63,990 bases of DNA, filler included, from Caldilineae bacterium (GCA_037446815.1; 3 parts of 3 records of this genome joined end to end with filler, not necessarily neighbours in it), one strand, 5' to 3'; numbered from the whole stretch's first letter, positions 9,165 to 53,462 are shown. A program made the numbers and translations. The notes: generated from the letters alone by a model not told the origin.

Positions 9165-9840
9165 GCCGGGGTTTGCATCCGCGGATAACACGGATGGGGC
9201 GGATGGGGGGCGGGAGATTGCTCGCGGCTTCGCCGCTCAGCAATGATAGATTGCGGTGGGCGGGGGAGCGGAGCCGCGCGGGGCTAAAGCCGCCGCGCTG
9301 AAGGTGTTGAAGTTGTGGGNNNNNNNNNNNNNNNNNNNNNNNNNNNNNNNNNNNNNNNNNNNNNNNNNNNNNNNNNNNNNNNNNNNNNNNNNNNNNNNNN
9401 NNNNNNNNNNNNNNNNNNNGGAGCGGAGCCGCGCGGGGCTAAAGCCGCCGCGCTGAAGGTGTTGAAGTTGTGGGCGCAGGGCGGGTCCTTGGGGAACGCG
9501 GCCCGATCCTGTCACCCTGAGCGGAGCGAAGGGTCTCGGTTTGCGGGATTCTTCGCGGCTTCGCCGCTCAGATGACGGTCGTATTGTGTCATGCCGAGCC
9601 GAAGGCGATACGCCCTCGCCCTCTGGGAGAGGGCTGGGGTGAGGGTCAAGATTCTTCGCGGCTTCGCCGATCAGGATGACGGCGGGACAGCAACCGCGAA
9701 TAGCGCGAATCCACGCGAATAGATGGCCTCTCTGTACGGTGTTGGGGGCTACCGCGGTTTGTTCTGAACGAGGAGGGCGCGAAGAACACCGAGTTTCTCT
9801 TGTGTCTCTCCGCGCCTTCTCCGTCTCCGCGGTGAACCTT
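9165..9840. repeat. Dense cluster of palindromic REP/MITE-like modules spanning a 100-N gap
   Basis: GATT(G/C)(C/T)TCGCGGCTTCGCCG x3; CGCGCGGGGCTAAAGCCGCCGCGCT on both sides of the gap; 9587-9680 is a near reverse complement of 60232-60326. Confidence 0.8.
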
Positions 9841-26877: not shown

Positions 26878-26977
26878 NNNNNNNNNNNNNNNNNNNNNNN
26901 NNNNNNNNNNNNNNNNNNNNNTTAATTAATTAANNNNNNNNNNNNNNNNNNNNNNNNNNNNNNNNNNNNNNNNNNNN
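26878..26977. other. Artificial contig-joining spacer
   Basis: N44-TTAATTAATTAA-N44, giving stops in all six frames. Confidence 0.95.
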
Positions 26978-29032: not shown

Positions 29033-29296
29033 ACATAACGTAAAGGGGAGTCTGATACTCCGGGGCCTTTTCGCATCATGCGGTTGGGCCGAACGCCTTT
29101 CGGCGCGAGAAGGGCGGTTGGCGCATGGGCGAGAAGGTGGCACCCCGCCGCTTGTTTCCACGAAACGAATACGGACAACTGAAGAAAGCGCCGAGGCACG
29201 GAGGCGCGAGTTCGTGCATGGCCGGGAAGTCCAGCGAAAAGCGCTGCGGCTTCGTTTTGGCCTATGCGCAGACCAGTGCGTACAAGGAGGCCTGTC

Positions 29297-32200: not shown

Positions 32201-35200
32201 CTGGACAACGGGACGATTATCACGAACACGGCCAGCGTCTGGTGCGCCGAGAACCCGACGCCCGTCGCCAGCGGCCCCGCCACATTCACCGTGAGCAGCG
32301 CGCCGTCCGTCGCGGGCGTGAAGACGATGCAGGACCTGAACGGGCCGCCACTTCGCCCGGGCGACCAGGTGCGTTACACGCTGGTGGTTACTAACACCGG
32401 CACGATGAACCAGGGCGACTATGGCGGCAACGAAATCCGCGATGACTTGCCAACCTATACCTCCATGGTGAGCGGAACCCTGTTCGCCTCGTCGGGCACG
32501 GCAACCTATGACAGCGTGAACCGCCGCGTTCTGTGGAACGGGGCGTTGCCGGTGGACCAGCCCGTTACCATCGTCTTTGACGTGGTGCTGGATAACGCCA
32601 TTCCCAACGGCACCGTGATTCAGAACCGCGGGCGGCTGTACTGGGACGACGACGGCGACAAGGCGAACAACCGCACCACGTACACGCCTTACGTTTCGGG
32701 GACCGTGGTGAGCGCGCCGCTGATGGTCGCGCACAAGACCTCGCTGGACCTGAACGGCGGCGTGTTTGAGCCGGGCGATGTCATCAGTTACACCGTCGTG
32801 ATCACCAATATCGGGAACATGGACCAGCCGGATATACCGTCGCACTTTGAGTTCTACGACCCCATATTCCCGGGCCTCACCTACAAGCCGGGGACGGCAA
32901 CCCAGCCCTGGGGCACGTGGGGCATTGACGGCACGGCGGTACGCTGGACCGGCCCCATCACCGTGGGCGTGCCGCTAACCCTCACCTGGGCCATGGACGT
33001 GGGCATCATCAACCACGGGACGGTGGTTACCAACGCCGCAGAAATCCGCTACGACAGCGACGCCGATGGCGATTGGGACACCAATGACGTGGTCGTTACG
33101 ACGAACACCACACAAGACACGATTTACTACCTGTCGGCGCTGCACGCCACGAAGATTTCGGAGGACATGACGGGCGGCGCGCCGCTCCAGCCCAACGATG
33201 TCATCCGCTACACGGTGATTATCACCAACACGGGCAACCGGCCCGTTACGGGCGCGGTCTTCACCGACGTGGTGCCCGCCAACACCACGTTCCTGAACGT
33301 GCCCACCCTTCCGGGCGGCGCGGTCAACGAGAGCACGGCGTCGCTGGTGAAAATCTCCAACATCTCCATCCCGGCCAACGGCGGCAGCGCCACGATTCAG
33401 TTCCGCGTGCGCGTGAACCTGCCGCTGTGGGATGGTACGGTCATCAGCAACCAGGGGTACGTGCGCTACGACCGCGACGGCCTGGGCACGTATGAGATGA
33501 TCGCCACGGACGACCCGCGCACGCCGACGGTGGGCGACCCGACGCAGGACACGGTAACCGCAGCGCCCGCGTTGGTGGTAACCAAGACGGCGCAGGACAT
33601 GAACGGGGGCAATCTGCGCCCGGGCGACGTGTTGAGTTACACCATCGTCATCACCAACACCGGCACCGAGAATGCGGTCAACGTCGCGGTAACGGATACC
33701 GTGCCTGCCAATACGGCCTTCGTGCCCGGCAGCGTAACGCGCGAGCCGGCATCGGCGGGCGGGACGCTGGGCACGCCGCCGAGCCTGGTGTCGGGCATGG
33801 TGATCACGGCCCAGACATCGGTTACCGTAACCATGGCGGTGCAACTGGACGTGCCGCTGCCCAACGGCGCCCTCATCACCAACACGGCCACGGTGAGCGC
33901 CGACCGCCTGACGCCGATTACCGCGACGGTTACCAATACCGTAACCAGCGCGCCCATCGGCAACGTGGCCAAGACGGGCACGGACGCGAACGGCGGCAAC
34001 GTAGTGCCGGGCGATCGCCTGGACTTCCAGGTGGTGCTGTGGAATACCGGCGACATGAACCAGGGCGACAACGCGGGCGATGAGTTCTGGGATGTCCTTT
34101 CGCCGCATGTAACCCTGGTGCCGGGGACTTTGGCGGCCACTTCGGGGACGGCGACGTACAATTCCGGCGCGCACCGCATTGAGTGGAACGGCCCGGTCAA
34201 CGTGGGCCAGCCCGTTACCATCACCTACAGCGCCGACGTGAACCTGCCGCTGAACAACGGCACCAACGTGCAGAACACGGCGTATTTCACCTATGACAGC
34301 GACGGCGACAACGTCAACGAGACGACTGTAACGTCTTCGGTGAACTTCACGGTGGTGAGCGCGCCGTTGGTGGTTGCGCACAAGTCGTCGCTGGACGTGA
34401 ACGGTTACCCGGTGCGCCCGGGCGACATCCTTAGTTACACCGTCGTCCTGACCAACGTGGGGACGATGGANNNNNNNNNNNNNNNNNNNNNNNNNNNNNN
34501 NNNNNNNNNNNNNNNNNNNNNNNNNNNNNNNNNNNNNNNNNNNNNNNNNNNNNNNNNNNNNNNNNNNNNNACGGACACGGTTACCAGCGCCGCCGTGATT
34601 GCGATAACCAAGTACTCCGAGGACATGACGGGCGGCGCGCCGCTCCAGCCCGGCGATGAGTTGCGCTACACCATCAACTTCACCAACACGGGCGACATGG
34701 ACGCGGTGGATATGGTGCTCACGGATACCATCCCGGCACACACGACCTTCCAGTCGTCTGGCGCGCTGCCTGGCGGCGGCGTCCTCGTCTCCACCAGCCC
34801 GGTGCTCCGCATTGAGGGCATTGACTTGGCGGCGGGCGCGTCGGCTCAATTCCGCTTCCGCGTTACGCTGGACAGCGTGATACCGGTGGGCACGTCTATC
34901 ACCAATCGCGCCTACATCCTCTACGACGCCGACGGCAACGGCTCCATGGAGTCGCTGCGGCAGTCCAACGAGGTGGTTGATCCGGTAACCAGCGCGCCCG
35001 TGCTGGCGATCACCAAGTCGGCGCAGGATCTCAACGGTGCGCCGTTGGTGCCCGGTGATACGCTGCGGTACACGCTTGTGGTCAACAACACGGGCAACGC
35101 CCCGGCGGAGAACACCGTCATCAGCGACACGCTGCCCGCCAACACCATGTGGGCCGACAACATCACCATCAACCCGCCATCGGCAGGCGGAACGCCCGGA

Positions 35201-38200
35201 ACGCCGCCCAACATCGTTACCGGCCTGACGGTGCAGGTGGGCTCGCCGGTTACGGTAACCTTTGACGTAACGGTGAACCGACCGACGGCCGACGGTAGCC
35301 AGGTGCGGAACCGCGCCGATGTGTCGGCAACGGGCGCGATGACGCCGGTGCTCAGCAACCTGGTAACGCGCACCGTGTCGGCTCCCGTGTTTGACATCCG
35401 CAAGGTGAGCGTGCCGATGACGGTAACGCCCGGCTCGCTCATGACCTACACGATTTACATTACCAACACCGGCCCCGTGGCGGCCAATGACATGGGCATC
35501 CTGGACAACCTGCCGCCGTATGTTACGTATGTGCCCGGCAGCGCGGGCCTGAAGGTGCCGACGGTCTACGCCGATGACTTTGAGTCCAACACCTACAGCG
35601 GCAACAGCGGCAACACCAACTTCGCCAGCAACTGGGTGGAGTCGCTGGATGATGGCTCGTCCGCGTCGGGGAACATCCTCCTGACGTCCAACCTAGGCAG
35701 CAGGCGGCTGCGGCTGAACGGCGACCTGACGAACGCGATGACCATCCGGCGCAACGTGGGCAACATTCTCCCGTTCACGTCGCCGCGGGTGGAGTTTGAC
35801 GCCAGGGCCGTTAGCATGGAGGCGGGCGATGAGTTCCGCTTCCAGGTGTACGACGGCTCCGTATGGCAGACGGTTTACACATGGAGCGGCCCGCTGGCCG
35901 AGTCGGGCTACACGACCCGCTCGTTTGACATCACGGGGTACAAGAGCGCCGACCTGCGCATTCGCTTCTGGGTCAGCACGGCCAACGATTCCGGCGACTA
36001 CCTGTACGTGGACAACGTGCGGGTATACGACGCCGGCGCGCCGCTGAACCCGCCGCCCAACTTGGCGACGGGCCTGACCCTGAACCCCGGCCAGGCCATC
36101 ACCGTTACGTTCAACGTTACGGCGACATCGCCGCTGACGAATGGCTTGTCCATCGTCAACGAGGCCGGCGTGTACTGCTACGAACTGCCGGTGCCGCAGT
36201 ACACGACCGCCGCCAGCGTCGTGGACAGCAGCGTGAGCCTGGCCGCGACCAAGATGAGCATTGACCTGAACGGCGGCGATATAACCCCCGGCGACACGCT
36301 GCGATACCAGGTGGTGTTGACGGCGATGGGTTCGGGCATCGCCACGAACACGAGCATCGTTGACCCGCTGCCGGCCAACACGACCTGGCAGAACAACGTC
36401 GTGGTTACGCCGCCGGGCGGGGTGGCGGGGGCGCCGCCCAACGTGCTCACCGGCCTGTCGGTGCCGGGCGGCTCCACGGTAACCGTTACCTACGACGTGC
36501 AGGTGAATGCGCCGCTGGCCGAGGGCACGATCATCACCAACACGGCCACCATCAGCAGCCCGAACATCCCGGCGGCCCTGACCTCTACGGTTACGGATAC
36601 GGTGCGCACCGCGGCGCTGTCCATCGGCAAGGCGGCGGATCCGTCGCCCATCGCGGCCGGCGGCGTGGTAACCTACATCATCACGGTGCGCAACACCGGC
36701 ACGACGACCGCCACCAACGTGGTGGTAACCGACACGCTCCCGCCCGAAGTCACGTACATCCCGGGCTCCACCACCATCGCCAGCGCCTTCGTGTTCGCTG
36801 ACGACTTCGGCTCCGGCGACTACAGCGGCAGCACGGGCACGCAGCCGTGGACAGGCGGCTGGACCGAGTCGCCGGCGGATGGCGGCCCGCTTTCCGGCGA
36901 CATCACCGTGGTGTCCGAGAGCGGGAGCCTGCGCCTGCACGTGAGCGGGACGAGCAAGACCATTCGCCGCCAGGCCGACATCCGCAGCATGTTCTACCCG
37001 GTGTTGGAGTTTGACCGCAAACTGGTGGGCATGGAGAGCGGCGACACGTTCACGCTGGAACTGTACAACGGCAGCGCGTGGACGACGGTGCGCTCGTGGA
37101 ACGGCCCGGCGGATGAGTCCGGCTACACGCATGAGGTGGTGGACCTGAGCGGCTACAAGGCCAGCAACTTCCGCCTGCGGTTTGGCAGCGGGCCGGCCAA
37201 CGCCGCCGATGACCATCTGTACGTGGACAACGTGATCATCTACGATACCGGCGTGCCGGGCAACGCGCCGCCGGTGCTCACCGATACGCTGTCCATCGGG
37301 CCTGGGATGGCGATGAACGTGTCGTTCCAGGGCAACGTCGCCAGCCCGCTGGAGAATGGCTCCACGATCACCAACCGCGCGGGCGCCAGCAGCCAGCAGA
37401 CGCCGACGCCGGTCCTGGCGCAACTGGTGTCCACCATCTCCAGCGCGCCGGACGTGCAGGTTACCAAGACTTCGTTTGACCCCAGCGGCTATCCGCTGCG
37501 GCCCGACGAGGTGCTGAACTACACCATCGTGCTCCACAACGTGGGCACGATGAACCAGCACGACAACGCAGGCCACGAGTTGGTGGACGCGATTCCCACC
37601 AACACGACCTACGTGCCCGGCAGTTTGTTCTACACATCGGGCGCGGGCGCGTACAACGCCGGCCTGAACCGCATAGAGTGGAACGGCGCGGTGAACGTGG
37701 GCCAGCCGGTAACGGTGTCCTTCTCGGTGCGGACGAACCCGCTGCTGGTCAACGGCACGCCCATCTACAACCTGGCCGTGCTGTCCTACGACAGCGACGG
37801 CGACAACGTGAACGACGCCACGCGGGGCAGCCCGGTGATTGACCTCATCACCAGCGCGCCGTTTGTGGTGGCGCACAAGACATCGGTGGATGTGGATGGC
37901 GCGCCGCTGCGCCCGGGCGAGGTTCTGTCGTACACGGTGGTCTTCACCAACGCCGGCGACATGGATCAACTGGACAAGCCCGGCGCCGAGTTCCTGGACG
38001 ACATTCCGGCGAACAGCGCCTACATCCCCGGCTCCGCTTGGGCTTCGTCTGGCTCGGTGTCGTACAACAGCACCTACAACCGCATCGCCTGGAACGGCAA
38101 CTTGCCTGTGGGCGTGCCGGTAACGGTGAAGTTCGCCGTGCAGACGAACAGCCCGCTACCCAACGGGACGGCCATCGTGAACACGGGCCGCGCGTTCTAC

Positions 38201-41200
38201 GACGCCGACGGCGACGGTACGACGAACGAGGCGGTGGCGCTGGCCGGGCCCATCACCGATACCATCACCAGCGCGCCGCGGATTGAGATCACCAAGGCGG
38301 CCGTGGACGTGAACGGCGCGCCGCTGGAGCCCGGCGACACCCTGGCCTACGACATCACCATCACCAACTCCGGCAACATGAACGCCGTGGGCATGGTGTT
38401 CACCGACACCATCCCGGCGCACACCGCGTACCTGTCGGTGGAGAATCTGCCGGCGGGCGCGGTGCTGGCGGCCACGTCGCCCGAGTTGCGCATCACGAAC
38501 CTGACCGTGAACGCGGGCACGGCGGTTACCTTCCGCCTGAACGTGGTGCTGGACATCCCGCTGGTCAACGGGACCGTCATCAGCAACCAGGGCATGCTGG
38601 CCTACGACGCGGACGGCAACGGGAGCAACGAATCGCTGGCGCCCACCGATGACCCGTCCACGCCGGCCATCAACGACCCGACGGTGCGGACGGTGGTGAG
38701 CGGGCCGGTGCTGGTGGTTACGAAGACCTCCAACGACCTGAACGGCGCGCCGCTTGGGCCGAGCGATGTCCTCCAGTACCAGGTGGTCATCCGCAACGAC
38801 GGCAAGGCCAACGCGACCGGCGTTGTGGTGAGCGACACCGTGCCTGCCTTCACAACCTGGCAGGATGCGGTAACGATTGACCCGGCGTCGGCCGGTGGCG
38901 TCATCGGCGCTCCGCCGCTCATCGTATCCGGCTTGACGGTGGCCGCGCAGCAGTCGGTAACCGTAACGTACAACGTGCAGGTCAGCGCGGGCGTCGCCGA
39001 TGGTACGCCTATCGTGAACCGCGTGCAGGTGCAGTGCGCCGAAGATCCGACCTGGCGCACGGCGGTGCTGACCGATACGGCCTACGCGCCGGTGCTCCAG
39101 ATATCCAAGGTCGGCGAGCCGAACCCGGTGGAAGCGGGCGCGGTGCTGACGTACACCATCCTCGTGTCCAACACGGGCGGCTATCCGACGGGCAATGTAT
39201 CGCTGGCCGACACGCTGCCCGCGCAGGTGGCCTACGTGCCCGGTTCCACGGTCCTGGCCGTAACGACTACCTACGCCGACGACTTTGAGAGCGCGACCTA
39301 CAGCGGCAACACCGGCACCCACAACTGGGCCAGCAACTGGGTGGAGCCGGCCGGGGACGGCGGCGCGCTGGCGGGCGACGTGGGCATCCTCAGCGAGTCG
39401 CTGAGCAGGCGGCTGCACGTCAGCGGCGCCAGCAAGTACGCCTGGCGGCAGGCGGACCTGACGCCGTTCCTGAAGCCGACCCTGCGGTTTGACCGCAAGT
39501 TGGTCAGCCTGGATGGGGCCAGCGACTACTTCCGCGTGGAAGTGTGGAATGGCGTGGCGTGGACGCCGCTGCAGACGTGGACGGGGCCTGCGGACGATGG
39601 CGCGTACTACACCGAGACCTTTGACCTGTCGCCGTTCATCGTGAGCGGCGCGCGCATCCGCTTCCGCAGCGGCCCGTCCAACAGCGTGGACGATCACCTG
39701 TACGTGGACAACGTGATGATTTACGACGAGGGCGTGCCCGGAGGCGCGCCGCCGGTGCTGGCCACCGGCCTGACGCTCCAGCCGCGCACGACGCTGCGGG
39801 CCACGTTCCAGGTGCAGGTGAACAGCCCGCTGCCCGACGGCACGACGCTTATCAACAGCGCGTCGGTAACCAGCCAGCACTTCCCGACGCCTATCGTCGC
39901 CACGGCGATGAACACGGTGCACTCCGCGCCGGACATTCGGGTGGACAAGACGTCGCTGGACGTGAACGGCGGCCTGCTCGCGCCGTATGATGTGCTGCGG
40001 TACCAGGTGGTGATCCAGAACGCGGGCAACGCCGACGCAACCAATGTCAACTTGACGGACGAACTGCCGCCATACACCACGTGGGTTGGCAACGTGAGCA
40101 TCGCGCCGGTCTCCGCCGGTGGCATTCCGGGCACGCCGCCCAACGTGGCGACCGGAATGACCGTGCGCGGCGGCGAGAGCGTAACGGTAACCTACGAGGT
40201 GCGCGTGATGCGACCGGTGATGGACGGCACCGACATCGTGAACACGGCCAGCGTGAGCAGCCTGCAAGCGCCCGGCCCGTTCACCGATACCATCACCGAC
40301 ACGGTGCACTCGCCCACGCTGCTCATCGGCAAGGGCGGAGCGCCGCAGCCGGTGGAGGCGGGCGGCCTGGTTACCTACACCATCGCTATCACCAACTCCG
40401 GCACGCTGACGGCGACCGGCGTGGTGGTGAGCGATACCCTGCCGCCGCAGATTACCTACGTGCCCGGCACGTCCACATGGCGGCTTGGCGCGACCTACGC
40501 CGACACGTTCTCCATCTACAGTTACTCGGAGAACGACGGCACGGTCAACTGGGCCAGCAACTGGATTGAGCAGAACGACGACGGCCTGCCCACGTCGGGC
40601 AACGTCGGCATGGTCTGGGATGCGGGCAGTCTGCGCCTGATGGTGCAGAACGTCAACCGCGCCATCTGGCGGCAGGCGGACATCAGTTACTTCTACAACC
40701 CGAAACTGCGGTTTGACCGCCGCATCCTGGGCCTGGAAGCCGGCAAAGCGTTCTACCTGGACGTGTACAATGGCTCCACGTGGCAGGTGGCGCAGACCTG
40801 GTTCGGGCCGCTGGACGAGGCGACGTACAGCACCATCGTGGTGGACCTGAGCGCCTACAAGTCCACGGCCACGCGCATCCGCTTCCGCGCCGGCACCACG
40901 TTGGACTCGGCGGACAGCATGTACGTGGACAACGTGGAAATCTACGACGAGGCGCAGGCGGGCGGGTCGCCGGGTAGCCTGGTGAGCGGGGCGACGATCC
41001 CGCCGGGCGCGAGCCTGGTGGCGCAGTTGACCGGCCGGGTGGCCAGCCCGCTGCCCAACGGCACCATGCTGCCCAACACCGGCTGGGTGCGCTGCACCGA
41101 GTGGCCCGAGGGCGTGTCGTCCACGTTCAACAGCCAGGTGCACAGCACAACCGTGCTCCAGGTTACCAAGTCGTCGCAGGATGTCAACGGCGGCGACCTG

Positions 41201-44200
41201 CAGCCGGGCGACGTGCTGCGGTACCGGTTGCGGCTGGAGAATGTGGGCAATCAGAACCAGGCCGACAACCCGGGCAACGAACTGGTGGACGTCATCCCGC
41301 CTAACACGACCTACGTGCCTGGGTCGGCCACGGCGACCAGCGGCATCGTCATCTACAACGGCGGCGCCAACCGCGTGGAGTGGAACGGCGCGGTGAATGT
41401 GGGCACGCCGGTGGACGTAACGTTTGACGTGCAGGTGAACAACGGCCTGGCCAACGGCACGGTCATCGCCAACCATGCCACGTCGTACTACGACGCCAAC
41501 GGCGACGGTTCCAACGAGGCCACAGTGGACAGCAACACGACCGAGGACACGGTGGTGAGCCGCGTTACCATCGTCGCCACCAAGATCTCCGAGGACTTGA
41601 ACGGCGGCCTGTTGGAACCGGGCGATACCTTGCGCTACACCATCGGCATCACCAACACGGGCAGCATGGATCAGCCCAACTCGCCCGCCCACGAGTTGCT
41701 GGATGAGTTGCCGGCGCACACGCACTACGTGCCCGGGTCGCTGTCGGCTACCAGCGGCGCGGCGCTGTTCGTGGACGGCACCACCATCCAGTGGGACGGC
41801 GCGCTGCCGGCGGGCGGCTCGGTAACCATCCTGTTCTCGGTTACCGTGGACGCGGGCACGCCGAACAATACCATCATCTCCAATCAGGGCTGGGTGTTCT
41901 ACGACAGCAACGGCGATGGCTCGGTGAACGAGGACGATACGCCGAAGGTTACCGACGATCCGCGCGTGCCTGGGCCGGATAACCCGACCGAGGACCGAGT
42001 CGGGCACGCGCCGCTGCTGCAGGCGACGAAGGTATCGGTGGATCAAAATGGCGGGTTCTTGGAGCCGGGCGACGTGCTGGTGTACACCATCGTGCTGCAC
42101 AACATCGGCAACGCCGACTTGGTCAACAACGTAGACCCCGAGTTCCTGGACAACATCCCGGCCAATACCACGTACATCCTCGGCACGGCCAGCGCGACGG
42201 TGGGTTCGGTAACTCTGAACCCGACCAACACGCAGTTGCGGTGGGATGGAACGCTAGCGCCCAGCCAGGCGACCGCGATCACGTTCCAGGTCCGCCTGAA
42301 CTCGCCGCTGGCCCACATGACGCAAATCTGCAACCAGGGCACCGTGTACTACGACGGCGATGGCGACGGCACCAACGAGTCCACCGTGCCCACGGATGAC
42401 CCGCGCACGCCGGAGAAGGACGACGCGACGTGCGACACCGTGGTGAGCGGGCCTATCCTCGGCGTGAGCAAGGCGTCGGAGGATGTGGATGGCGGCGACC
42501 TGCTGCCGAGGGACATGCTGCGCTACACGGTTACCATCAGCAACACCGGCAACGACGCGGCGCACAACGTGGCCATCAGCGACACCATGCCCGCCGAAGT
42601 AACGTGGTTTGACAGCGTTACGGTGAACCCGCCGTCGGCAGGCGGCACGCCGGGCACCCCGCCCATGGTCATCACCGGCATGACGGTGCCCGCGGGCGGT
42701 ACGGTAACGGTGAGTTACCTGGTGAGGGTGAACTCGCCGCTGCCCAACGGCACGGTCATCACCAACACGGCGGAGGTCTCGGCCGACAGGATTGAGCCGG
42801 TCTCGGCGACGGTTACCAATGTCGTGTCCAGCGATCACATCCTGGCGCTGTCCAAGGTTGGATCGCCGAAGCCGGTGCCGGCGGGCGACCTGCTGACCTA
42901 CACCATCCAGTACGAGGTCATCGGCGACGAACCTGCGCCTATGGCCGTCATCACCGACAGCGTGCCGGCGAACACCGAGTTCGTCAGCGCCAGCGGCGGC
43001 GTAACGCCCGTGGGCGGCGTCCTGGTGTGGAACCTGGGCGCGCTCACCGCTCCGACGACCGGCGAAGTAACCTTCACGGTGCGGGTGAACACGCCGTTGC
43101 CACGCGGCACGGCCATCGCCAACACCGCTTACTTCCGCGATCAGGATGGCCGCAGCGCCTCGGCCACGGATACCACGCTGGTAACCAGCGACCATACCCT
43201 GGCGCTGTCCAAACTGGACGTGGTGGATCCGGTGCAGGCCGGCGAATTGCTGACCTACACGCTGACGTTGGACGTTGCGGGCAACGAGCCTGCGACCAAC
43301 GTCATCATCTCGGACGGCATCCCGGCGGGCACCACGTTCTACTCGGCCAGCGGCGGCACGTCTATAGAGTCGCCGCCGGTGGGCCAGCCCGGCATGGTGC
43401 GCTGGACGCTGGATTCGGTCAACCCGGGCGAGCCGGCTGTGGTAACGCTGACGGTGCGGGTGGACCTCTCGGTGCCCAACGGCACGACCATCCTGAACTG
43501 GGCCAGCGCGCTGGACGACCAGGGCAGGGGCGCGACCGCCTCGGCGTCCACGCTGGTGGAGAACACCGACGTGAGCATCGTCAAGACGGTTGAGCCGGCC
43601 ACGGTGAAGTCGGGCGACGTAATCACGTACACCATCGGCTACATGAACGCAGGGCCTGCCGCGGCGCTGAACGTGCGCATCACGGACACGCTGCCGTCCG
43701 GCCTGACGTTCGGCGGCGTGGTGCACGCGGAGCCGGGCGTCGTCGGCCCGTCGCAAGTCGGCCAGGACTTCATCTGGTCCGTCGGCACGCTGCCGTCGGG
43801 CGCGTCCGGAACCCTGGTGTTCACGGCGACGGTCGACCCGACCGGCGAGACGGAGCGCACGCTGACCAATGTGGCCCTCATCGGCACGAGCACCGCCGAG
43901 CGCAACTACGGCAACAACGCATCCAGCGCCAGCAACACCCTGCGCCAGGCGATCAACGTGCGGGTCATCAAGCAGTCGTCGGCGGGCGGGTTCGTCCAGC
44001 CGGGCGCCGAGATTCAGTACTCGGTAACCGTGCAGAATATCGGCGATGGCATCGTCACCGGCCTCACGATTTCGGACACGGTGCCGGCGAACACGACCTT
44101 CGTGCCAGGGAGCATCGTGCTGGATCCGCTTGGGTCGGGCACGCCTGGGTTCACGCCGCCGACGCTGGCCAGCAACGTTACCATCCCCATGGGCGGGAGC

Positions 44201-45418
44201 GTAACGGCGCGGTATCGGGTGCGCGTCGCGGCTCCGCTGCCCAACAATACGCCCATCGTGAACACGGCGGAGGCCATGGGCGGCGGGCTGCCCGTGCCGG
44301 TGCAGGCGAGCATCACCGACCTGGTGCAGAGTAGCCACACGCTCAGCCTGCTGAAGGTGGACACGCCCGATCCGGTGCAGGCGGGCGGCCTGTTGACCTA
44401 CACGTTGCAATACCAGGTGATGGGGAACGAGCCGGCCAACGGCGTGGTGCTGACCGACACGCTGCCTGCCCAGGTAACGGTGCAGAGCATCAGCAACGGC
44501 GGCATCCAGAGCGGCAACCAGATTGCCTGGAACCTGGGCGACCTGACGCCGCCCGCGACGGGTAGCGTGAGCGTGGTGGTGCGGGTGAACGCGCCGCTGC
44601 CCAACGGGACGGTGCTGGTGAACCGCGCAACCCTCGCCGACGCCCAGGGCGCTACGGCCAGCGCCACGGCATCCACGACGGTGCAGAGCGCGCCGGCGTT
44701 CAGCGTGTCCAAGTTGGCGCCGGCGACGGTGCGGGCGGGCGACATCCTGACCTACACCATCGTCTTCACCAATACCGGCAATGCCTACGCCACGTCGGTG
44801 GTCATCACCGACCGCATCCCGGCGCACACCGAATGGCATTCGGGCGGGCACTCGCACACGGCCACCGAAGTGCGTTGGAACGTGGCGAGCATGGCTCCGG
44901 GCGTTACGGGCTACGCCGTCTTCTCGGTGCGCGTCCTGCCCGACACGCCGGTCGGGACGGTGATTCTGAACAGCCAGTATGGCGTGCGCTGCGCCGAACT
45001 GCCCACCACGACCGGTGGAGCGCCGCTCGGCGTTACCGTGGCGCCGCCGACGGGCATCACGCTGGAGTACTTCCGGCTCAGGCGCGTCGGGCCATCGGTG
45101 GAACTGGAGTGGCGCACGGCGACGGAAATCAACAACCGCGGGTTCAACGTGTACCGCGGCACAACCGACAACTTTGAGGAGGCGGTGCGCCTGAACAGCG
45201 AGTTGATTCCGGGCCAGGGCCGTGGGCTGGCCGGCGGCGCGACCTACACGTTCACCGACACAGGCGTGGAGCCCGGCCACACGTATTACTACTGGCTGGA
45301 GGACATTGACCTGTACAACAACGTGCAGGCGCGCATGCTCCGCTCCATCGGCGTGTACACGTACATCCCGGACGAGGCACGGAAGCACACCTTGCGCTTG
45401 CCGTCGGTGTGGCGCTAG
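29297..45418 (+). CDS. Giant (~5,400 aa) secreted DUF11-repeat surface protein / putative adhesin
   Basis: AAGGAGG RBS; signal peptide ending VHA-A; about 34 repeats of K...PGD.L.YT....N.G...D.(L/I)P...ITN.A; five inserted YADDF...YVDNV.IYD domains; C-terminal LEW.TATE.NN.GFNVYR...YTFTD...YYYWLED.D domain; ends RLPSVWR. It contains a 100-N gap, so the true length is uncertain. Confidence 0.9.
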   Translation: MRKATWLGVVVLVALALAVGMGLAIRPVHAAPGVVLVKTSSAGGTAVPGQVIQYTLWITNTDPAPVTLEVRDDLPSQVLYIGGSAVAASPLTYADDFNVVSWSNNTGTANWAGPWVETNDAVGPHIGDLVIEDDAGSFRLRLRAANKSVDRPADTSTMLQPTLRFIRKLWSVETNDWFYLDVYDGGVWHNGVMSWSVGSTQDVYIAEEVNLTAYKSSAMKIRFRTGAAVATGDVMYVDDVEIYDKGVALAAPPVMTTSLQVEANATKVVRLSAVVLQPLSGGTLMTNTATVKSGAVTLATAQVTDVLQAPILQITKSAIPAVVEAGERITYTVRVTNTGTTTANNVSIYDPVPANTSYVGGSVQLTDLLPDDVPSVGPRATLWDSEHAGLVRARLTPSIEIAGVGAPPWILTGHTLAPGQAVTVTFEVQSQAPLTNGLVITNTASVTCTQIITPVSASAYTTVHSSPSLTITKSSQNLNPPQLNPDDTLRYVITLTNSGNGNATGTVVSDTLPANTTFVPGSVVISPASAGGTPGTPPNIATGISVPGMGGSVTVRYDVKVDKPLQNGTVITNVAAARCTEAMTWVVSSAVTDTVVSAPYVVATKSAQDMTGGAPLRPGDVLSYTVVLNNIGTMNYYDLANHEFVDILPLTYASYVAGSHTASSGTITFATDRVRWNGDLLVGQPVTLSFAIQLNTPLTNGLTITNTGEVRYDSDGDGDYDGLDIPAQTNAVVSTVTASPNIVVTKTSADMTGGAPLQPGDQLRYEIVFTNTGDMNATDMVLTDTIPANTTFASPGSVPGGGTLVSTSPVLRIEGIDLAAGASASFVFRVNLNSVITVGTSITNRAYIFYDSDGVGGNDTLAQSNLVSDAVTSSPQFTLTKQAHSGSIVPGQPVTYTIVLTNTGNAPATGVVVSDTLPVSLTFVPGSVTIAPASAGGTPGTPPQIATGISAPVGQPITVTFRATLARPLDNGTIITNTASVWCAENPTPVASGPATFTVSSAPSVAGVKTMQDLNGPPLRPGDQVRYTLVVTNTGTMNQGDYGGNEIRDDLPTYTSMVSGTLFASSGTATYDSVNRRVLWNGALPVDQPVTIVFDVVLDNAIPNGTVIQNRGRLYWDDDGDKANNRTTYTPYVSGTVVSAPLMVAHKTSLDLNGGVFEPGDVISYTVVITNIGNMDQPDIPSHFEFYDPIFPGLTYKPGTATQPWGTWGIDGTAVRWTGPITVGVPLTLTWAMDVGIINHGTVVTNAAEIRYDSDADGDWDTNDVVVTTNTTQDTIYYLSALHATKISEDMTGGAPLQPNDVIRYTVIITNTGNRPVTGAVFTDVVPANTTFLNVPTLPGGAVNESTASLVKISNISIPANGGSATIQFRVRVNLPLWDGTVISNQGYVRYDRDGLGTYEMIATDDPRTPTVGDPTQDTVTAAPALVVTKTAQDMNGGNLRPGDVLSYTIVITNTGTENAVNVAVTDTVPANTAFVPGSVTREPASAGGTLGTPPSLVSGMVITAQTSVTVTMAVQLDVPLPNGALITNTATVSADRLTPITATVTNTVTSAPIGNVAKTGTDANGGNVVPGDRLDFQVVLWNTGDMNQGDNAGDEFWDVLSPHVTLVPGTLAATSGTATYNSGAHRIEWNGPVNVGQPVTITYSADVNLPLNNGTNVQNTAYFTYDSDGDNVNETTVTSSVNFTVVSAPLVVAHKSSLDVNGYPVRPGDILSYTVVLTNVGTMXXXXXXXXXXXXXXXXXXXXXXXXXXXXXXXXXXTDTVTSAAVIAITKYSEDMTGGAPLQPGDELRYTINFTNTGDMDAVDMVLTDTIPAHTTFQSSGALPGGGVLVSTSPVLRIEGIDLAAGASAQFRFRVTLDSVIPVGTSITNRAYILYDADGNGSMESLRQSNEVVDPVTSAPVLAITKSAQDLNGAPLVPGDTLRYTLVVNNTGNAPAENTVISDTLPANTMWADNITINPPSAGGTPGTPPNIVTGLTVQVGSPVTVTFDVTVNRPTADGSQVRNRADVSATGAMTPVLSNLVTRTVSAPVFDIRKVSVPMTVTPGSLMTYTIYITNTGPVAANDMGILDNLPPYVTYVPGSAGLKVPTVYADDFESNTYSGNSGNTNFASNWVESLDDGSSASGNILLTSNLGSRRLRLNGDLTNAMTIRRNVGNILPFTSPRVEFDARAVSMEAGDEFRFQVYDGSVWQTVYTWSGPLAESGYTTRSFDITGYKSADLRIRFWVSTANDSGDYLYVDNVRVYDAGAPLNPPPNLATGLTLNPGQAITVTFNVTATSPLTNGLSIVNEAGVYCYELPVPQYTTAASVVDSSVSLAATKMSIDLNGGDITPGDTLRYQVVLTAMGSGIATNTSIVDPLPANTTWQNNVVVTPPGGVAGAPPNVLTGLSVPGGSTVTVTYDVQVNAPLAEGTIITNTATISSPNIPAALTSTVTDTVRTAALSIGKAADPSPIAAGGVVTYIITVRNTGTTTATNVVVTDTLPPEVTYIPGSTTIASAFVFADDFGSGDYSGSTGTQPWTGGWTESPADGGPLSGDITVVSESGSLRLHVSGTSKTIRRQADIRSMFYPVLEFDRKLVGMESGDTFTLELYNGSAWTTVRSWNGPADESGYTHEVVDLSGYKASNFRLRFGSGPANAADDHLYVDNVIIYDTGVPGNAPPVLTDTLSIGPGMAMNVSFQGNVASPLENGSTITNRAGASSQQTPTPVLAQLVSTISSAPDVQVTKTSFDPSGYPLRPDEVLNYTIVLHNVGTMNQHDNAGHELVDAIPTNTTYVPGSLFYTSGAGAYNAGLNRIEWNGAVNVGQPVTVSFSVRTNPLLVNGTPIYNLAVLSYDSDGDNVNDATRGSPVIDLITSAPFVVAHKTSVDVDGAPLRPGEVLSYTVVFTNAGDMDQLDKPGAEFLDDIPANSAYIPGSAWASSGSVSYNSTYNRIAWNGNLPVGVPVTVKFAVQTNSPLPNGTAIVNTGRAFYDADGDGTTNEAVALAGPITDTITSAPRIEITKAAVDVNGAPLEPGDTLAYDITITNSGNMNAVGMVFTDTIPAHTAYLSVENLPAGAVLAATSPELRITNLTVNAGTAVTFRLNVVLDIPLVNGTVISNQGMLAYDADGNGSNESLAPTDDPSTPAINDPTVRTVVSGPVLVVTKTSNDLNGAPLGPSDVLQYQVVIRNDGKANATGVVVSDTVPAFTTWQDAVTIDPASAGGVIGAPPLIVSGLTVAAQQSVTVTYNVQVSAGVADGTPIVNRVQVQCAEDPTWRTAVLTDTAYAPVLQISKVGEPNPVEAGAVLTYTILVSNTGGYPTGNVSLADTLPAQVAYVPGSTVLAVTTTYADDFESATYSGNTGTHNWASNWVEPAGDGGALAGDVGILSESLSRRLHVSGASKYAWRQADLTPFLKPTLRFDRKLVSLDGASDYFRVEVWNGVAWTPLQTWTGPADDGAYYTETFDLSPFIVSGARIRFRSGPSNSVDDHLYVDNVMIYDEGVPGGAPPVLATGLTLQPRTTLRATFQVQVNSPLPDGTTLINSASVTSQHFPTPIVATAMNTVHSAPDIRVDKTSLDVNGGLLAPYDVLRYQVVIQNAGNADATNVNLTDELPPYTTWVGNVSIAPVSAGGIPGTPPNVATGMTVRGGESVTVTYEVRVMRPVMDGTDIVNTASVSSLQAPGPFTDTITDTVHSPTLLIGKGGAPQPVEAGGLVTYTIAITNSGTLTATGVVVSDTLPPQITYVPGTSTWRLGATYADTFSIYSYSENDGTVNWASNWIEQNDDGLPTSGNVGMVWDAGSLRLMVQNVNRAIWRQADISYFYNPKLRFDRRILGLEAGKAFYLDVYNGSTWQVAQTWFGPLDEATYSTIVVDLSAYKSTATRIRFRAGTTLDSADSMYVDNVEIYDEAQAGGSPGSLVSGATIPPGASLVAQLTGRVASPLPNGTMLPNTGWVRCTEWPEGVSSTFNSQVHSTTVLQVTKSSQDVNGGDLQPGDVLRYRLRLENVGNQNQADNPGNELVDVIPPNTTYVPGSATATSGIVIYNGGANRVEWNGAVNVGTPVDVTFDVQVNNGLANGTVIANHATSYYDANGDGSNEATVDSNTTEDTVVSRVTIVATKISEDLNGGLLEPGDTLRYTIGITNTGSMDQPNSPAHELLDELPAHTHYVPGSLSATSGAALFVDGTTIQWDGALPAGGSVTILFSVTVDAGTPNNTIISNQGWVFYDSNGDGSVNEDDTPKVTDDPRVPGPDNPTEDRVGHAPLLQATKVSVDQNGGFLEPGDVLVYTIVLHNIGNADLVNNVDPEFLDNIPANTTYILGTASATVGSVTLNPTNTQLRWDGTLAPSQATAITFQVRLNSPLAHMTQICNQGTVYYDGDGDGTNESTVPTDDPRTPEKDDATCDTVVSGPILGVSKASEDVDGGDLLPRDMLRYTVTISNTGNDAAHNVAISDTMPAEVTWFDSVTVNPPSAGGTPGTPPMVITGMTVPAGGTVTVSYLVRVNSPLPNGTVITNTAEVSADRIEPVSATVTNVVSSDHILALSKVGSPKPVPAGDLLTYTIQYEVIGDEPAPMAVITDSVPANTEFVSASGGVTPVGGVLVWNLGALTAPTTGEVTFTVRVNTPLPRGTAIANTAYFRDQDGRSASATDTTLVTSDHTLALSKLDVVDPVQAGELLTYTLTLDVAGNEPATNVIISDGIPAGTTFYSASGGTSIESPPVGQPGMVRWTLDSVNPGEPAVVTLTVRVDLSVPNGTTILNWASALDDQGRGATASASTLVENTDVSIVKTVEPATVKSGDVITYTIGYMNAGPAAALNVRITDTLPSGLTFGGVVHAEPGVVGPSQVGQDFIWSVGTLPSGASGTLVFTATVDPTGETERTLTNVALIGTSTAERNYGNNASSASNTLRQAINVRVIKQSSAGGFVQPGAEIQYSVTVQNIGDGIVTGLTISDTVPANTTFVPGSIVLDPLGSGTPGFTPPTLASNVTIPMGGSVTARYRVRVAAPLPNNTPIVNTAEAMGGGLPVPVQASITDLVQSSHTLSLLKVDTPDPVQAGGLLTYTLQYQVMGNEPANGVVLTDTLPAQVTVQSISNGGIQSGNQIAWNLGDLTPPATGSVSVVVRVNAPLPNGTVLVNRATLADAQGATASATASTTVQSAPAFSVSKLAPATVRAGDILTYTIVFTNTGNAYATSVVITDRIPAHTEWHSGGHSHTATEVRWNVASMAPGVTGYAVFSVRVLPDTPVGTVILNSQYGVRCAELPTTTGGAPLGVTVAPPTGITLEYFRLRRVGPSVELEWRTATEINNRGFNVYRGTTDNFEEAVRLNSELIPGQGRGLAGGATYTFTDTGVEPGHTYYYWLEDIDLYNNVQARMLRSIGVYTYIPDEARKHTLRLPSVWR

Positions 45419-45431
45419 CCTCAAGGACACA

Positions 45432-45471
45432 TTCGCAGGGGGCGGCGGGCATGCCCTGTCCGCCCCCGCGG
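45432..45471 (+). terminator. GC-rich hairpin between the giant gene and the C25 gene (terminator or RNA-stabilising stem)
   Basis: GGGGGCGG...CCGCCCCC stem, no clear U tract. Confidence 0.4.
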
Positions 45472-45518
45472 TTCATCTGGAATCGGGACGCATCACGGCT
45501 CCCGGCAGGGAGAGGCTC

Positions 45519-48512
45519 ATGAATCGGAAACGGATACTGGGGTGCACGATTGCGGCGCTGCTCATGAGCGTCGTTGCGGTGCAGGCCGCGCAGCCTGAAT
45601 CATCCTGGGGGCGCGAACTGAAGCCCGAAGTCCGCGTGGTGGCGGGCAGCGCCGATGCCATCGTGCTGGACATCTTCACGCCGCGCCCGACGGTGGAGAC
45701 GGTGGCGTGGGAGGGCGAAGTCTGGCAGCGCGTGAGCATCCCCGGACTGGCGACAGCCGCGGAACCAGGCGCGCCGGAACTGCCCGTGCAGAGCGCCATG
45801 CTGGGCATCCCGCCCAAGGCCGCGTGGCAGGTGCAGGTGGAAAGCACCGACCGCATCCTGCTGGAAGGGCCGTATCGGCTCCTGCCCGCCCCGACGGTGC
45901 GCGCGGATTACGCGGATGGGGAGGCGCGTACCGAGCAGGCCCGAACCCCCGATGCGCGCATCTACGGGGCGTCGGCGTTCTACCCGGTGGACGTGGTGGA
46001 AGTCGCCGGAAGCGGCTACCTGCGCGACCAGCGGTTCCTGGCGCTGCGGGTGCATCCGGTGCGATACAATCCGACAACCGGCCAGGTAGAGTGGTATCAG
46101 CGTATGCGGGTGCGCGTCGCGTTGAGCGGCGGAGACCTGGCCGCGTGCGATGGCGAGCGGGACGGCTACTTTGAGCCGGTGCTCCGCGCGACTATCCTCA
46201 ACTACGAGCAGGCGAAGGCGTGGCGCTCGCGGGAGCCTTCCACCGTCGCCGCGCAGGCGGGGCCTATCTGCGGCATCGGCCCGCAGTACAAGGTCATCGT
46301 CGGAGCCGAGGGCCTGCACGAAATCACCTACGCGGACCTGGTGGGGGCGGGCTTTCCCGTTACCTCGGTGGACCCCGCGCGGCTCACCATGTGCTACATG
46401 GGCCAGGAAATCGCCATCCAGGTTACGGGGCAGGAGGATCACATTCTGAATCCCGCTGACCGCATCCTTTTCTATGCGGCGATCCCATACAGCCGCTACA
46501 CGAACACCGGCACGTACTGGTTGAGTTTCGGCGCGGCGGACGGGAAGCGGATGCAGACGAAGAGCGGGGCTGTCAGTCCCGCGACGCCCTACACGCCGAC
46601 GCGCACGGTTACGGCCGTCGCCGAGCGGTCGCTGGAATATGACAGCAAGTACGCCTCGCCCAAGGGCGATCACTGGTTCTGGGACACCCTTCACTGGCTG
46701 GACGTTGCGCCGTACACGCCGCGCACCTACACGCTCCAGTTGACGGAGCCGCCTGCCGGAGTCGCCAACGCGGTCCTGCGCGTCGGGCTTCAGGGGCGCG
46801 ACGCCAGCCTGCACGAATTGAACTTCACGTTCAACGGCCTATCGCTGGGCAGCCGACAGTGGGCGGGCGAGGAGTATCGGACGCTCTCGTTCCTCGTCCC
46901 GACCACGGCGCTGCGCCTGGGGGCCAACACGCTGACCCTGTCCAGCAAGGACCGAGGCGCGACGCTGGACTACGTGTGGCTGGATTTCTTCAGCGTGGAG
47001 TACAGCGCGCGGAACGTAACGACGGATGGCAAGGAGTTCACGTTCACGGGCCAGAGCGGGCCAGCGCGGTATTGGATTACCGGCTTCGCCCAGGGCGATG
47101 TGGCCGTGTACGATGTCTCGGACGTGCGCAACGTGGCGCAGATTACGCATATCCCCGCCGAGCCGGTCAGTTCGGTGCGGTTGCCGTCGGTGTGGAAGCG
47201 CGACGGCGCGAGCGCGGCGGATGCCGAAGAGGCCCTCGTTGCGGGGCGGCAGGATACGTTTGCGCAGTCGGCGGCGGCCACCTATGGCGTCGCGTTCCAG
47301 AGCAACGAGGCATCGGCGCGCACGTACTGGGTGGGGACGGGCGCGGCAATCCGCCGGCCTTTGTCCATCGCGGCAGACCCCATCACGAACTGGCGTTCGC
47401 CGTCCCTCGGCGCGGACTACCTCATTATTACTGACCCGGCGCTGGCAACCGAGGCCAATCGCTTGGTAACCCACCACCAGAACCAGGGGCTTCAGCCGCT
47501 GGTGGTGTACGTGCAGGACATCTACGACGAGTTCAACTACGGCCAGGCCGATCCCGCCGCCATCCGCGCCTTCTTGCAGTACGCCTATGACCAATGGAAC
47601 ATGAGGCCGTCCTACGTGCTCCTCCTGGGCGACGGTAGTTATGATTTTCTGAATTACAAAGGCTACGGGCTGCGCGAGATGGTGCCGCCGCTCCTGGCTC
47701 CGGTGGACAAGACCATGGGCGAGACGGCCACTGACAACCGCTACGTGGCGGTGCACGGCGATGACATCCTGCCGGATATGTACATCGGCAGGATTCCCGC
47801 GGCCAATGCGGACCAGGCCAAGACGATGGTGGACAAGACTCTTGCGTATCCTACGGCTCCAGGCGGCGCGTGGGACAGGGAGATTATCCTCGTGTCGGAC
47901 AAACCCGACGCACCCGACTACAACAACTTCATCCAGGCGTCCGATGAGATGTACGAGTGGCTGGGGATGGCGGCTCCCACGTACACCCGAACGCGCGTGT
48001 ACTACGATCCGTCCGCGAGCAGCGCGCCCTGGGTGTACACCAGCATCGGTGCGGCGAGGACGGCCATGTTCGCCGAGTTCAACCAGGGCGCGCTGTTCTG
48101 GAACTTCATGGGGCACGCCTCGGAGCATCAGTGGGTGGCCGACCGCCTGCTGCACGTGGATGACGTGCCCGCGCTGACCAACGGCCTGCGCCTGCCGGTG
48201 CTGCTGGAGATGACCTGCCAGACGGGGCAATTCCACCTGGCGCAGGCTTCACCCGCCGCCGAGTGTTTGGCCGAGCAGTTGATTCGCCGCGCCGGCGGGG
48301 GGACGGTCGCCAGTTGGTCGTCCACGGGGTGGGGGATGGCTTCGGGGCACGATGTGATGCAGCAGGGGTTCTACGAGGCGATCTTTTCGGGCGGCCTGCG
48401 GCAATTGGGGCCTGCCGTGGCGATTGGCACGGTTCATGCATACAACGCAGGGTACAATGACCTGGTGGACACGTTCGTGTTGTTCGGCGACCCTGCTCTG
48501 TTTGTGCGGTAG
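45519..48512 (+). CDS. Secreted C25 (gingipain-family) cysteine peptidase with PorU-like architecture
   Basis: Signal peptide; C25 propeptide-like PGAPELP; YKV.V...GL..IT..DL...G and DRILFYA...YWL; ADYLII, DIYDEF..G, YVLLLGDG, D.YIGRIP; catalytic GHA and MTC; ends LFGDPALFVR. Confidence 0.9.
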   Translation: MNRKRILGCTIAALLMSVVAVQAAQPESSWGRELKPEVRVVAGSADAIVLDIFTPRPTVETVAWEGEVWQRVSIPGLATAAEPGAPELPVQSAMLGIPPKAAWQVQVESTDRILLEGPYRLLPAPTVRADYADGEARTEQARTPDARIYGASAFYPVDVVEVAGSGYLRDQRFLALRVHPVRYNPTTGQVEWYQRMRVRVALSGGDLAACDGERDGYFEPVLRATILNYEQAKAWRSREPSTVAAQAGPICGIGPQYKVIVGAEGLHEITYADLVGAGFPVTSVDPARLTMCYMGQEIAIQVTGQEDHILNPADRILFYAAIPYSRYTNTGTYWLSFGAADGKRMQTKSGAVSPATPYTPTRTVTAVAERSLEYDSKYASPKGDHWFWDTLHWLDVAPYTPRTYTLQLTEPPAGVANAVLRVGLQGRDASLHELNFTFNGLSLGSRQWAGEEYRTLSFLVPTTALRLGANTLTLSSKDRGATLDYVWLDFFSVEYSARNVTTDGKEFTFTGQSGPARYWITGFAQGDVAVYDVSDVRNVAQITHIPAEPVSSVRLPSVWKRDGASAADAEEALVAGRQDTFAQSAAATYGVAFQSNEASARTYWVGTGAAIRRPLSIAADPITNWRSPSLGADYLIITDPALATEANRLVTHHQNQGLQPLVVYVQDIYDEFNYGQADPAAIRAFLQYAYDQWNMRPSYVLLLGDGSYDFLNYKGYGLREMVPPLLAPVDKTMGETATDNRYVAVHGDDILPDMYIGRIPAANADQAKTMVDKTLAYPTAPGGAWDREIILVSDKPDAPDYNNFIQASDEMYEWLGMAAPTYTRTRVYYDPSASSAPWVYTSIGAARTAMFAEFNQGALFWNFMGHASEHQWVADRLLHVDDVPALTNGLRLPVLLEMTCQTGQFHLAQASPAAECLAEQLIRRAGGGTVASWSSTGWGMASGHDVMQQGFYEAIFSGGLRQLGPAVAIGTVHAYNAGYNDLVDTFVLFGDPALFVR

Positions 48513-53362: not shown

Positions 53363-53462
53363 NNNNNNNNNNNNNNNNNNNNNNNNNNNNNNNNNNNNNN
53401 NNNNNNTTAATTAATTAANNNNNNNNNNNNNNNNNNNNNNNNNNNNNNNNNNNNNNNNNNNN
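53363..53462. other. Artificial contig-joining spacer
   Basis: N44-TTAATTAATTAA-N44. Confidence 0.95.

Follow-up and report, generated by a model that had tools for sequence, protein, structure and literature searches.

A peptide shared by a giant adhesin-like protein and its PorU-like C25 peptidase neighbor as a candidate variant of the Chloroflexota YLP-type tag

Two adjacent genes with one peptide in common

We investigated a two-gene cassette on the plus strand of a 63,990-nucleotide stretch of DNA from a Caldilineae bacterium (GCA_037446815.1); this stretch, hereafter the window, is a scaffold of three contigs from a source genome of 3.19 Mb. According to the list of open reading frames (ORFs) and its translation, the first gene (29264..45418, +) encodes a giant secreted, adhesin-like protein with DUF11 repeats, 5384 amino acids (aa) as scaffolded, a length that is approximate because the ORF crosses a 100-N scaffold gap (34471-34570). 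Its translated N-terminus presents a hydrophobic signal or anchor segment, and in a Pfam search both of its ends matched DUF11, DUF7507, DUF7927 and DUF7619. The second gene (45519..48512, +) encodes a secreted, PorU-like cysteine peptidase of the C25 family (997 aa, assigned by Pfam), which begins with a signal-peptide-like segment (residues 1-24). Since the flanking genes (PmbA/TldD, MutS and a histidine kinase) are housekeeping genes, we consider the cassette to consist of the giant and the peptidase only.

The two products share an unusual short peptide, RLPSVW(R/K). The giant ends with ...YIPDEARKHTLRLPSVWR directly before its stop codon (45416-45418), with the core RLPSVWR at 45395-45415; this core closes a tail module, IPDEARKHTLRLPSVWR (45365..45415, +), that follows a C-terminal beta-sandwich ‘pre-anchor’ domain of about 90-100 aa (ITLEYF...IGVYTY; 45056..45364, +; delimited by profile search). 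The peptidase contains ...THIPAEPVSSVRLPSVWKRDGASAAD... (S552-R561 at 47172-47201), and here translation and alignment place the core, RLPSVWK, at R554-K560 (47178..47198, +), 437 residues from the C-terminus. It lies between VYDVSD and VAFQS, inside a clade-specific insertion of 42 residues relative to distant homologues (about residues 549-590; 47163..47288, +), which lies within a hairpin loop of the beta-sandwich domain immediately preceding the catalytic domain. Translation and coordinates thus confirmed what an initial annotation of this DNA had read here, namely a peptide common to the giant’s C-terminus and the peptidase’s interior, with the latter copy in a linker between VYDVSD and VAFQS.

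The six-frame translation of the whole genome (4.54 million residues) contains RLPSVW at two places, both of them within the cassette, and the chance expectation for RLPSVW[RK] in a 997-aa neighbor is 6e-6. The similarity extends upstream of the box (IP(D/A)E...RLPSVW; BLASTP, 15/47 identities, E 4e-5 in a single comparison). A domain-level homology between the peptidase’s beta-sandwich and the giant’s pre-anchor domain was rejected (hhalign probability 0.13), leaving just this 47-residue local similarity ending in the box, and tblastn found no paralogue of the giant’s C-terminal domain in the genome.

The peptide is kept across orthologous cassettes. We compared 12 clade sequences (that of the window and eleven orthologues, 57-87% identical) and four distant homologues in one alignment (A1): all 12 clade peptidases carry the box within the 42-residue insertion, and the four distant homologues lack the insertion altogether. 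Likewise, in a wider alignment (A2), 12 close orthologues had the insertion, and of 56 more distant homologues 55 lacked it. The box of the 12 A1 clade sequences reads RLPSVWK in 7, RLPSVWR in 1 and RLPSIWK in 1, and is degenerate in the other three (RLPSVWA, RLPSVPK and RLPAATR), whereas the Ala-rich rest of the insertion, after the motif, is freely variable and poorly conserved. The giant’s tail follows the pattern YIPDE.R(K/R)(Y/H)..RLP(S/F/L)(V/A)WR, up to the stop, in nine loci, which include four genomes of the same genus and a relative with a 57%-identical peptidase; I104, P105, D106, E107, R109, R114, L115, P116, W119 and R120 (numbered in the last 120 residues) are invariant in the nine. 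The codons of the box differ among orthologues (TTG/CTG/CTA; TCG/TCC; GTG/GTC), and this synonymous drift with the motif kept points to selection on the peptide.

The initial annotation had also noted 15 identical nucleotides at the two sites. This part stands: the 15-mer TTGCCGTCGGTGTGG has exactly two sites in the window, 45398 and 47181, with a mean of 0.01 in shuffled sequence and 0 of 100 shuffles reaching 2. Conservation at the nucleotide level, or gene conversion, was rejected as its cause, given that orthologues differ at synonymous sites; the 15-nucleotide identity is a coincidence of codon choice.

As for the peptidase itself, Pfam assigned residues 35-231 to Propeptide_C25 (74 bits) and residues 634-994 to Peptidase_C25 (PF01364; 319 bits, with a cut-off of 23), the His/Cys dyad being present in the region 48114..48218 (+; His866 at 48114-48116, Cys900 at 48216-48218). 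We take H866 and C900 to be the catalytic residues, by analogy with the established dyad of gingipain-type C25 enzymes; both, together with G865, are invariant in 68 aligned homologues. The AlphaFold2 (AF2) model of the peptidase had a mean predicted local distance difference test score (pLDDT) of 88.4 and a predicted TM-score (pTM) of 0.87, and Foldseek matched it best to PorU (6za2_B, E 1.6e-30, 862 aligned columns, TM-score about 0.4; then 6za2_A), followed by RgpB and Kgp. The peptidase shares with PorU the succession of Propeptide_C25, beta-sandwich domains and a gingipain-type catalytic domain, and with the gingipains RgpB and Kgp the prodomain fold, the catalytic-domain fold and the invariant His/Cys; it differs from the gingipains in having, as PorU does, extra beta-sandwich domains between prodomain and catalytic domain. 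It also differs from PorU, in its Chloroflexota host, in a structural-alignment identity of 17-18%, and in scoring below the NCBIfam cut-offs for PorU (NF033707, 276.8 bits vs 420) and PorU2 (NF052324, 212.6 vs 450). Moreover, it has no type IX secretion system (T9SS) C-terminal domain (CTD): Pfam found neither a Por_Secre_tail nor any other domain after the catalytic domain, the protein ending in ...GDPALFVR. Among the flanking genes, to which the look for T9SS components was confined, no T9SS context was seen.

In the peptidase model, loop residues 554-583 have pLDDT <50 and lie between confident strands (547-549 and 589-597), suggesting that the RLPSVWK loop is probably disordered. The model of the giant’s C-terminus, a weak one (pLDDT 57), shows strands up to residue 102 and no secondary structure in the last 17 residues (104-120; pLDDT <50). 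A buried structural strand, the outcome against which the initial annotation had warned, was therefore predicted for neither copy, bearing in mind that the giant’s model is weak. Prediction of a complex between peptidase residues 232-997 and the giant’s last 120 residues scored 0.00 in both runs, with the controls not folded, and weighs neither for nor against binding.

The YLP-type tag family and the slot behind the pre-anchor domain

Exported Chloroflexota proteins often carry a short hydrophobic-LP-hydrophobic-basic peptide, usually 0-11 residues from the stop and in many cases after a Pro/Thr linker, for which NCBIfam holds two models, NF050076 (sort_motif_YLP, 11 positions) and NF053834 (ultrashort_CTERM, 10 positions). 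The initial annotation had pointed to a Chloroflexota motif of the form (I/V)YLP(L/I)(I/V)x(R/K), and correctly so, with many such boxes among the NF050076 matches in related genomes. It had also treated the motif’s function as not known to be described; indeed, we found no paper naming the YLP-type motif, and nothing relevant in the literature on Chloroflexi C-terminal sorting signals with C25, yet NCBIfam already has models for it.

Such tails are also present in the genome studied here. Gene calls throughout were crude (longest-ORF or G+C-at-third-position (GC3) filters). We carried out a scan for C-terminal enrichment of the kind proposed by the initial annotation: in coding-like ORFs, 9 of 54 matches to a loose LP-xxx-[RK] pattern lay 0-4 aa from the stop, vs 1.23 expected (binomial P 3.5e-6), compared with 3 of 54 for the reversed pattern. 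The genome’s tails include RRYLPIILRF, RLHLPLIMRSVTR and VRLPVLFKGM, each directly before a stop, and Pro/Thr linkers often precede them. A 1490-aa exported protein of this genome (L094; G000 C141:1144-5616(+)) bears an internal box behind a Pro/Thr linker, RLILPLVWRDGA, that continues ‘...W(R/K).GA’, as in the peptidase, and ends with a C-terminal variant, RYFPLALRLF, before the stop.

The giant’s tail resembles this family in its LP core, V at +2, aromatic residue at +3 and basic residue at +4, and also in that it closes an exported protein at the very C-terminus, after the terminal domain. RLPSVW departs from it in having R for Y/F at -1, S for L at +1 and W at +3, and the peptidase copy departs further from typical YLP tails, being internal and in a loop rather than at the extreme C-terminus.

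More telling is what stands in the place of the giant’s tail in other proteins. A profile made from nine orthologous copies of the pre-anchor region (the last 120 residues) found 16,885 representative proteins at E<=1e-3, and we read the tail classes in 149 of the best 150. YLP-like tails follow the domain in 35 of these 149, at 0-41 residues behind it; T9SS-CTD-like ends follow in 12, with more such ends among the 29 that have >110 residues after the domain; a membrane segment and then basic residues follow in 11, an RLLPxRPR-type tail in 12, and 50 were classed as other. Pfam and NCBIfam confirmed a T9SS type A sorting domain in one of the proteins (P0030). No Pfam or NCBIfam match to the pre-anchor domain itself was found in the 8 sequences tested; judged by its tails, it behaves like a putative ‘choice-of-anchor’ domain. 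Because its homologues end in sorting signals, the giant’s tail occupies a slot used for such signals, the same slot that in homologues holds T9SS CTDs, LPXTG/sortase signals and the membrane-spanning plus basic anchors of the PEP-CTERM/exosortase type. It differs from these classical C-terminal signals in being ultrashort (7-10 residues), with no membrane-spanning segment and no folded domain.

The RLLPxRPR tails have the form (R/Y)RLLP(A/T/G)RPR(L/P)AP followed by about 10 more residues, and are carried by P0061, P0075, P0102, P0104, P0107, P0109, P0127, P0143, P0144, P0155, P0160 and P0162.

C25 peptidases as carriers of the tag

We next turn to C25 peptidases at large; taxon labels are those of the metagenome-assembled genome records, and related genomes are not independent samples. 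In Chloroflexota-labelled loci, 13 of 72 C25 ORFs match a strict tail pattern, vs 10 of the 2385 genes of this genome. The same pattern occurs on 5 of 359 non-C25 neighbors of C25 genes, two of the five being orthologues of the present giant, which amounts to a weak enrichment of tagged genes beside C25 genes. Chloroflexota PorU-like C25 peptidases very often bear a YLP box of their own; its usual place is right after the catalytic domain, where the present clade has none.

A looser box pattern matched 37 times in 98 distinct C25 homologues from outside the clade, vs 5.6 +/- 2.4 in shuffled and 1 in reversed sequences. The C-terminus lies <=11 residues away from 26 of these boxes and 35 residues away from two; two others lie elsewhere, and seven fall within positions 509-573 of the query peptidase. 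These seven internal boxes are canonical (e.g., YLPLISGG, YLPVVQGG, YLPLIVGG, YLPLIGGE and YLPLVLRN) and are distributed over two hairpin loops in the beta-sandwich domain preceding the catalytic domain: those of L029, L102 and L077 align with the peptidase’s own loop, and those of L062, L023, L101 and L103 with the neighboring one. L077 is also the single exception in alignment A2, having its own insertion at the site, with a canonical YLP box. Five of the seven (L062, L023, L029, L102 and L077) lack a C-terminal box, as the present clade does, and L101 and L103 have both boxes; the loop box would thus seem to stand in for the C-terminal box that is usual elsewhere. Both RLPSVW(R/K) copies, then, stand where canonical boxes stand in other proteins, the giant’s in the slot seen in 35 of 149 pre-anchor proteins and the peptidase’s in the loop.

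Boxes are found at still other positions. Among the 26 top YLP matches of related genomes, 20 lie 0-11 residues from the stop, five come after a signal-peptide-like segment with a short linker, and one is probably spurious. We also read 19 places in four genomes with no C25 match, of which 8 were C-terminal, 6 N-proximal and 5 internal. Occurring at C-termini and at N-proximal and internal sites, the box evidently needs no free C-terminus. Canonical N-proximal boxes, 15-50 residues behind a signal-peptide-like segment and at the mature protein’s N-terminal end, were seen in G016 (L138, L142, L143, L145), G011 (L152), G029 (L155), G034 (L120) and G040 (L119), and in the closed genome, G016, N-proximal was the commonest position among the 8 places read.

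The genome studied here has three full C25 genes and one weak match. The other two full copies (G000 C133:1-2339(-) and C175:1695-4121(-)) carry no YLP box and end in ...GWNLV...GYW(I/L)...W..P before the stop, a small GWNLV...GYW module also present at the C-termini of C25 homologues from other genomes (L005, L009, L036 and L065). A further short, conserved tail, ...(R)VGEFDF(A/G)LV(A/P)G(D/N/E) before the stop, was seen on some C25 paralogues, namely the second C25 ORF of L014, L024, L029, L042, L063 and L075, and P0016. A C25 homologue in a record labelled Pirellulales (L044) has a canonical YLP tail, VFLPLVVK at the stop, which a binning error or transfer could explain.

Candidate roles of the shared box, and further features of the locus

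We arrived at the reading, to which we give a probability of about 0.5, that both RLPSVW(R/K) copies are working copies of a divergent, genus-specific YLP-type tag and that both proteins are its cargo, the peptidase not being shown as its reader. The suggestion of the initial annotation that RLPSVW(R/K) is a variant of the Chloroflexota tag is supported by the giant’s slot, the loop position, the exposure of both copies and their conservation. In such a scheme, the box would be a short linear motif that is displayed on a flexible stretch and works irrespective of its position, and through which exported proteins may dock to a receptor or sorting factor in the envelope; the shared variant would direct adhesin and peptidase to one location, and there the peptidase may go on to act on the adhesin. 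A precedent for a tagged enzyme is PorU, described in a review as cargo in its own right that retains its sorting domain (PMC10202324). What is new here is the loop-displayed form of the tag; the tag family itself is already catalogued.

Several points weigh against this reading. RLPSVW scores 3.2 bits in the giant and 6.0 bits in the peptidase, vs 20-31 for the training boxes, on a proxy matrix derived from 39 boxes that the NCBIfam model had selected, and 337 and 124 of the 1.3 million windows of the genome score at least as high as the giant and peptidase sites, respectively. A genome search with NF050076 (E<=10) reported three places, neither of our sites among them and none at the 15-bit cut-off; its filter passed 15 candidates only, so the two sites may never have been scored. 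(Running hmmscan against NCBIfam at E<=10 omits the short YLP models even for canonical tails and is unusable for deciding membership.) The profile score being poor, the YLP-type label rests on position and context, and by profile RLPSVW would at best be a divergent relative of the YLP box. The model of the giant’s tail is of low confidence, as noted above. Lastly, a generic tag does not account for one unusual variant (R at -1, S at +1, W at +3) being common to both proteins, which fits a pair-specific interaction better.

The cassette constrains how the tag can work. The YLP-type tag, which is curated by NCBI, marks many exported Chloroflexota proteins; PorU-like peptidases carry it preferentially and have a defined hot spot for its display next to the catalytic domain. 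Behind one widespread, unnamed domain, the tag takes the same slot as T9SS tails, membrane anchors and others, which is comparative evidence for a sorting signal, and adhesin tail and enzyme loop form a compact matched pair with which to ask whether the peptide is an address, a substrate or both.

It is possible, although in our judgement unlikely, that the peptide instead joins enzyme and substrate, as the initial annotation had proposed in calling it a recognition or attachment signal with matching versions on both: the PorU-like peptidase would recognise the adhesin’s box and cleave or transfer it in a sortase-like manner, and its own loop copy would serve, in cis or in a dimer, as a pseudo-substrate, latency element or autoprocessing site. 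The catalytic His/Cys is invariant, the two-gene cassette is conserved and the same idiosyncratic variant appears in both boxes. Gingipain-type C25 enzymes cleave after R or K, and the boxes end in R or K. PorU, according to the same review, is inhibited by a beta-hairpin that one monomer places over the other’s catalytic domain, blocking it (PMC10202324); with the boxes here lying in hairpin loops that adjoin the catalytic domain, this precedent keeps the pseudo-substrate idea alive.

However, the distribution of enzyme and tag speaks against such a relationship. NF050076 matched at E<=1 in 38 of 41 genomes, and also in 6 of 14 unrelated control genomes, so counts of 1-3 may be noise; relatives of one protein, P0002, were present in 21 of the 41 genomes of its class. 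Four genomes (G007, G011, G029 and G016, the last being one contig, closed and 98% complete) have 12-17 YLP matches and no Peptidase_C25 match at E<=1, four others (G010, G017, G024 and G036) have C25 matches yet 0-2 YLP matches, and the two counts are uncorrelated over 37 genera (Spearman rho 0.02); in G034, distant Peptidase_C25 matches are present. The tag is frequent on C25 peptidases themselves (the 13 of 72 above) and rare on their non-C25 neighbors (the 5 of 359). In addition, the giant stops exactly at R, such that cleavage after R would have no leaving group, and the loop is undocked in the AF2 monomer. The two copies also stay alike with no strict covariation, a covariation for which the initial annotation had asked: a giant with RLPFVWR is paired with a peptidase with RLPSVWK, and one with RLPLAWR with a peptidase with RLPAATR. 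Unlike sortase-type signals, which do not work from N-proximal or internal positions, the tag can lie in a disordered internal loop or just behind a signal peptide as well as at the C-terminus; this argues against a classical sortase or exosortase reaction, for which an anchor in the membrane at the C-terminus is required.

An extension of this idea, which we regard as decidedly unlikely, would make the loop boxes pseudo-substrate or latency elements of a T9SS-independent sortase system for surface proteins, with the YLP-type tails, the giant’s RLPSVWR among them, as the enzyme’s signals and its own copy keeping the enzyme silent or anchored until cargo is met.

We consider it improbable that the peptide is a private address joining this peptidase and this adhesin through one common site or strand pairing, like a minimal dockerin. 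The RLPxxW variant is indeed private to the cassette in this genome, whose other tails differ from RLPSVW, both partners retain it throughout the genus and in the 57%-identical relative, and the similarity continues upstream of the box. On the other hand, canonical YLP boxes occur at the same loop hot spot in lineages with no matching neighbor, and unrelated proteins (P0081, P0119 and P0120) likewise have the IP-A/D-E context ahead of a canonical box. A neutral relic, i.e., a tail-coding segment copied into the peptidase gene and left there with no present role, is very improbable: the rest of the insertion is poorly conserved and of low complexity and the most distant member of the clade has a degenerate box (RLPAATR; P0012/L083), but across orthologues the box is far better conserved than its flanks despite synonymous change, and YLP boxes arose independently at the hot spot in at least seven other lineages, vs about 0.3 chance matches (arithmetic from the shuffle mean).

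Two further features of the locus were recorded. The intergenic gap of ~100 nucleotides between the giant and the peptidase, in which no T-tract terminator or sigma-70-like promoter was found, contains a G+C-rich stem-loop (45433..45472, +), with a predicted RNA folding energy for 45416-45525 of -51.7 kcal/mol (z -2.67 vs shuffles). The contig joins of the window are runs of N at 9320-9419, 26878-26977, 34471-34570 and 53363-53462; across the third, the giant’s ORF stays in frame, and missing repeats may hide there.

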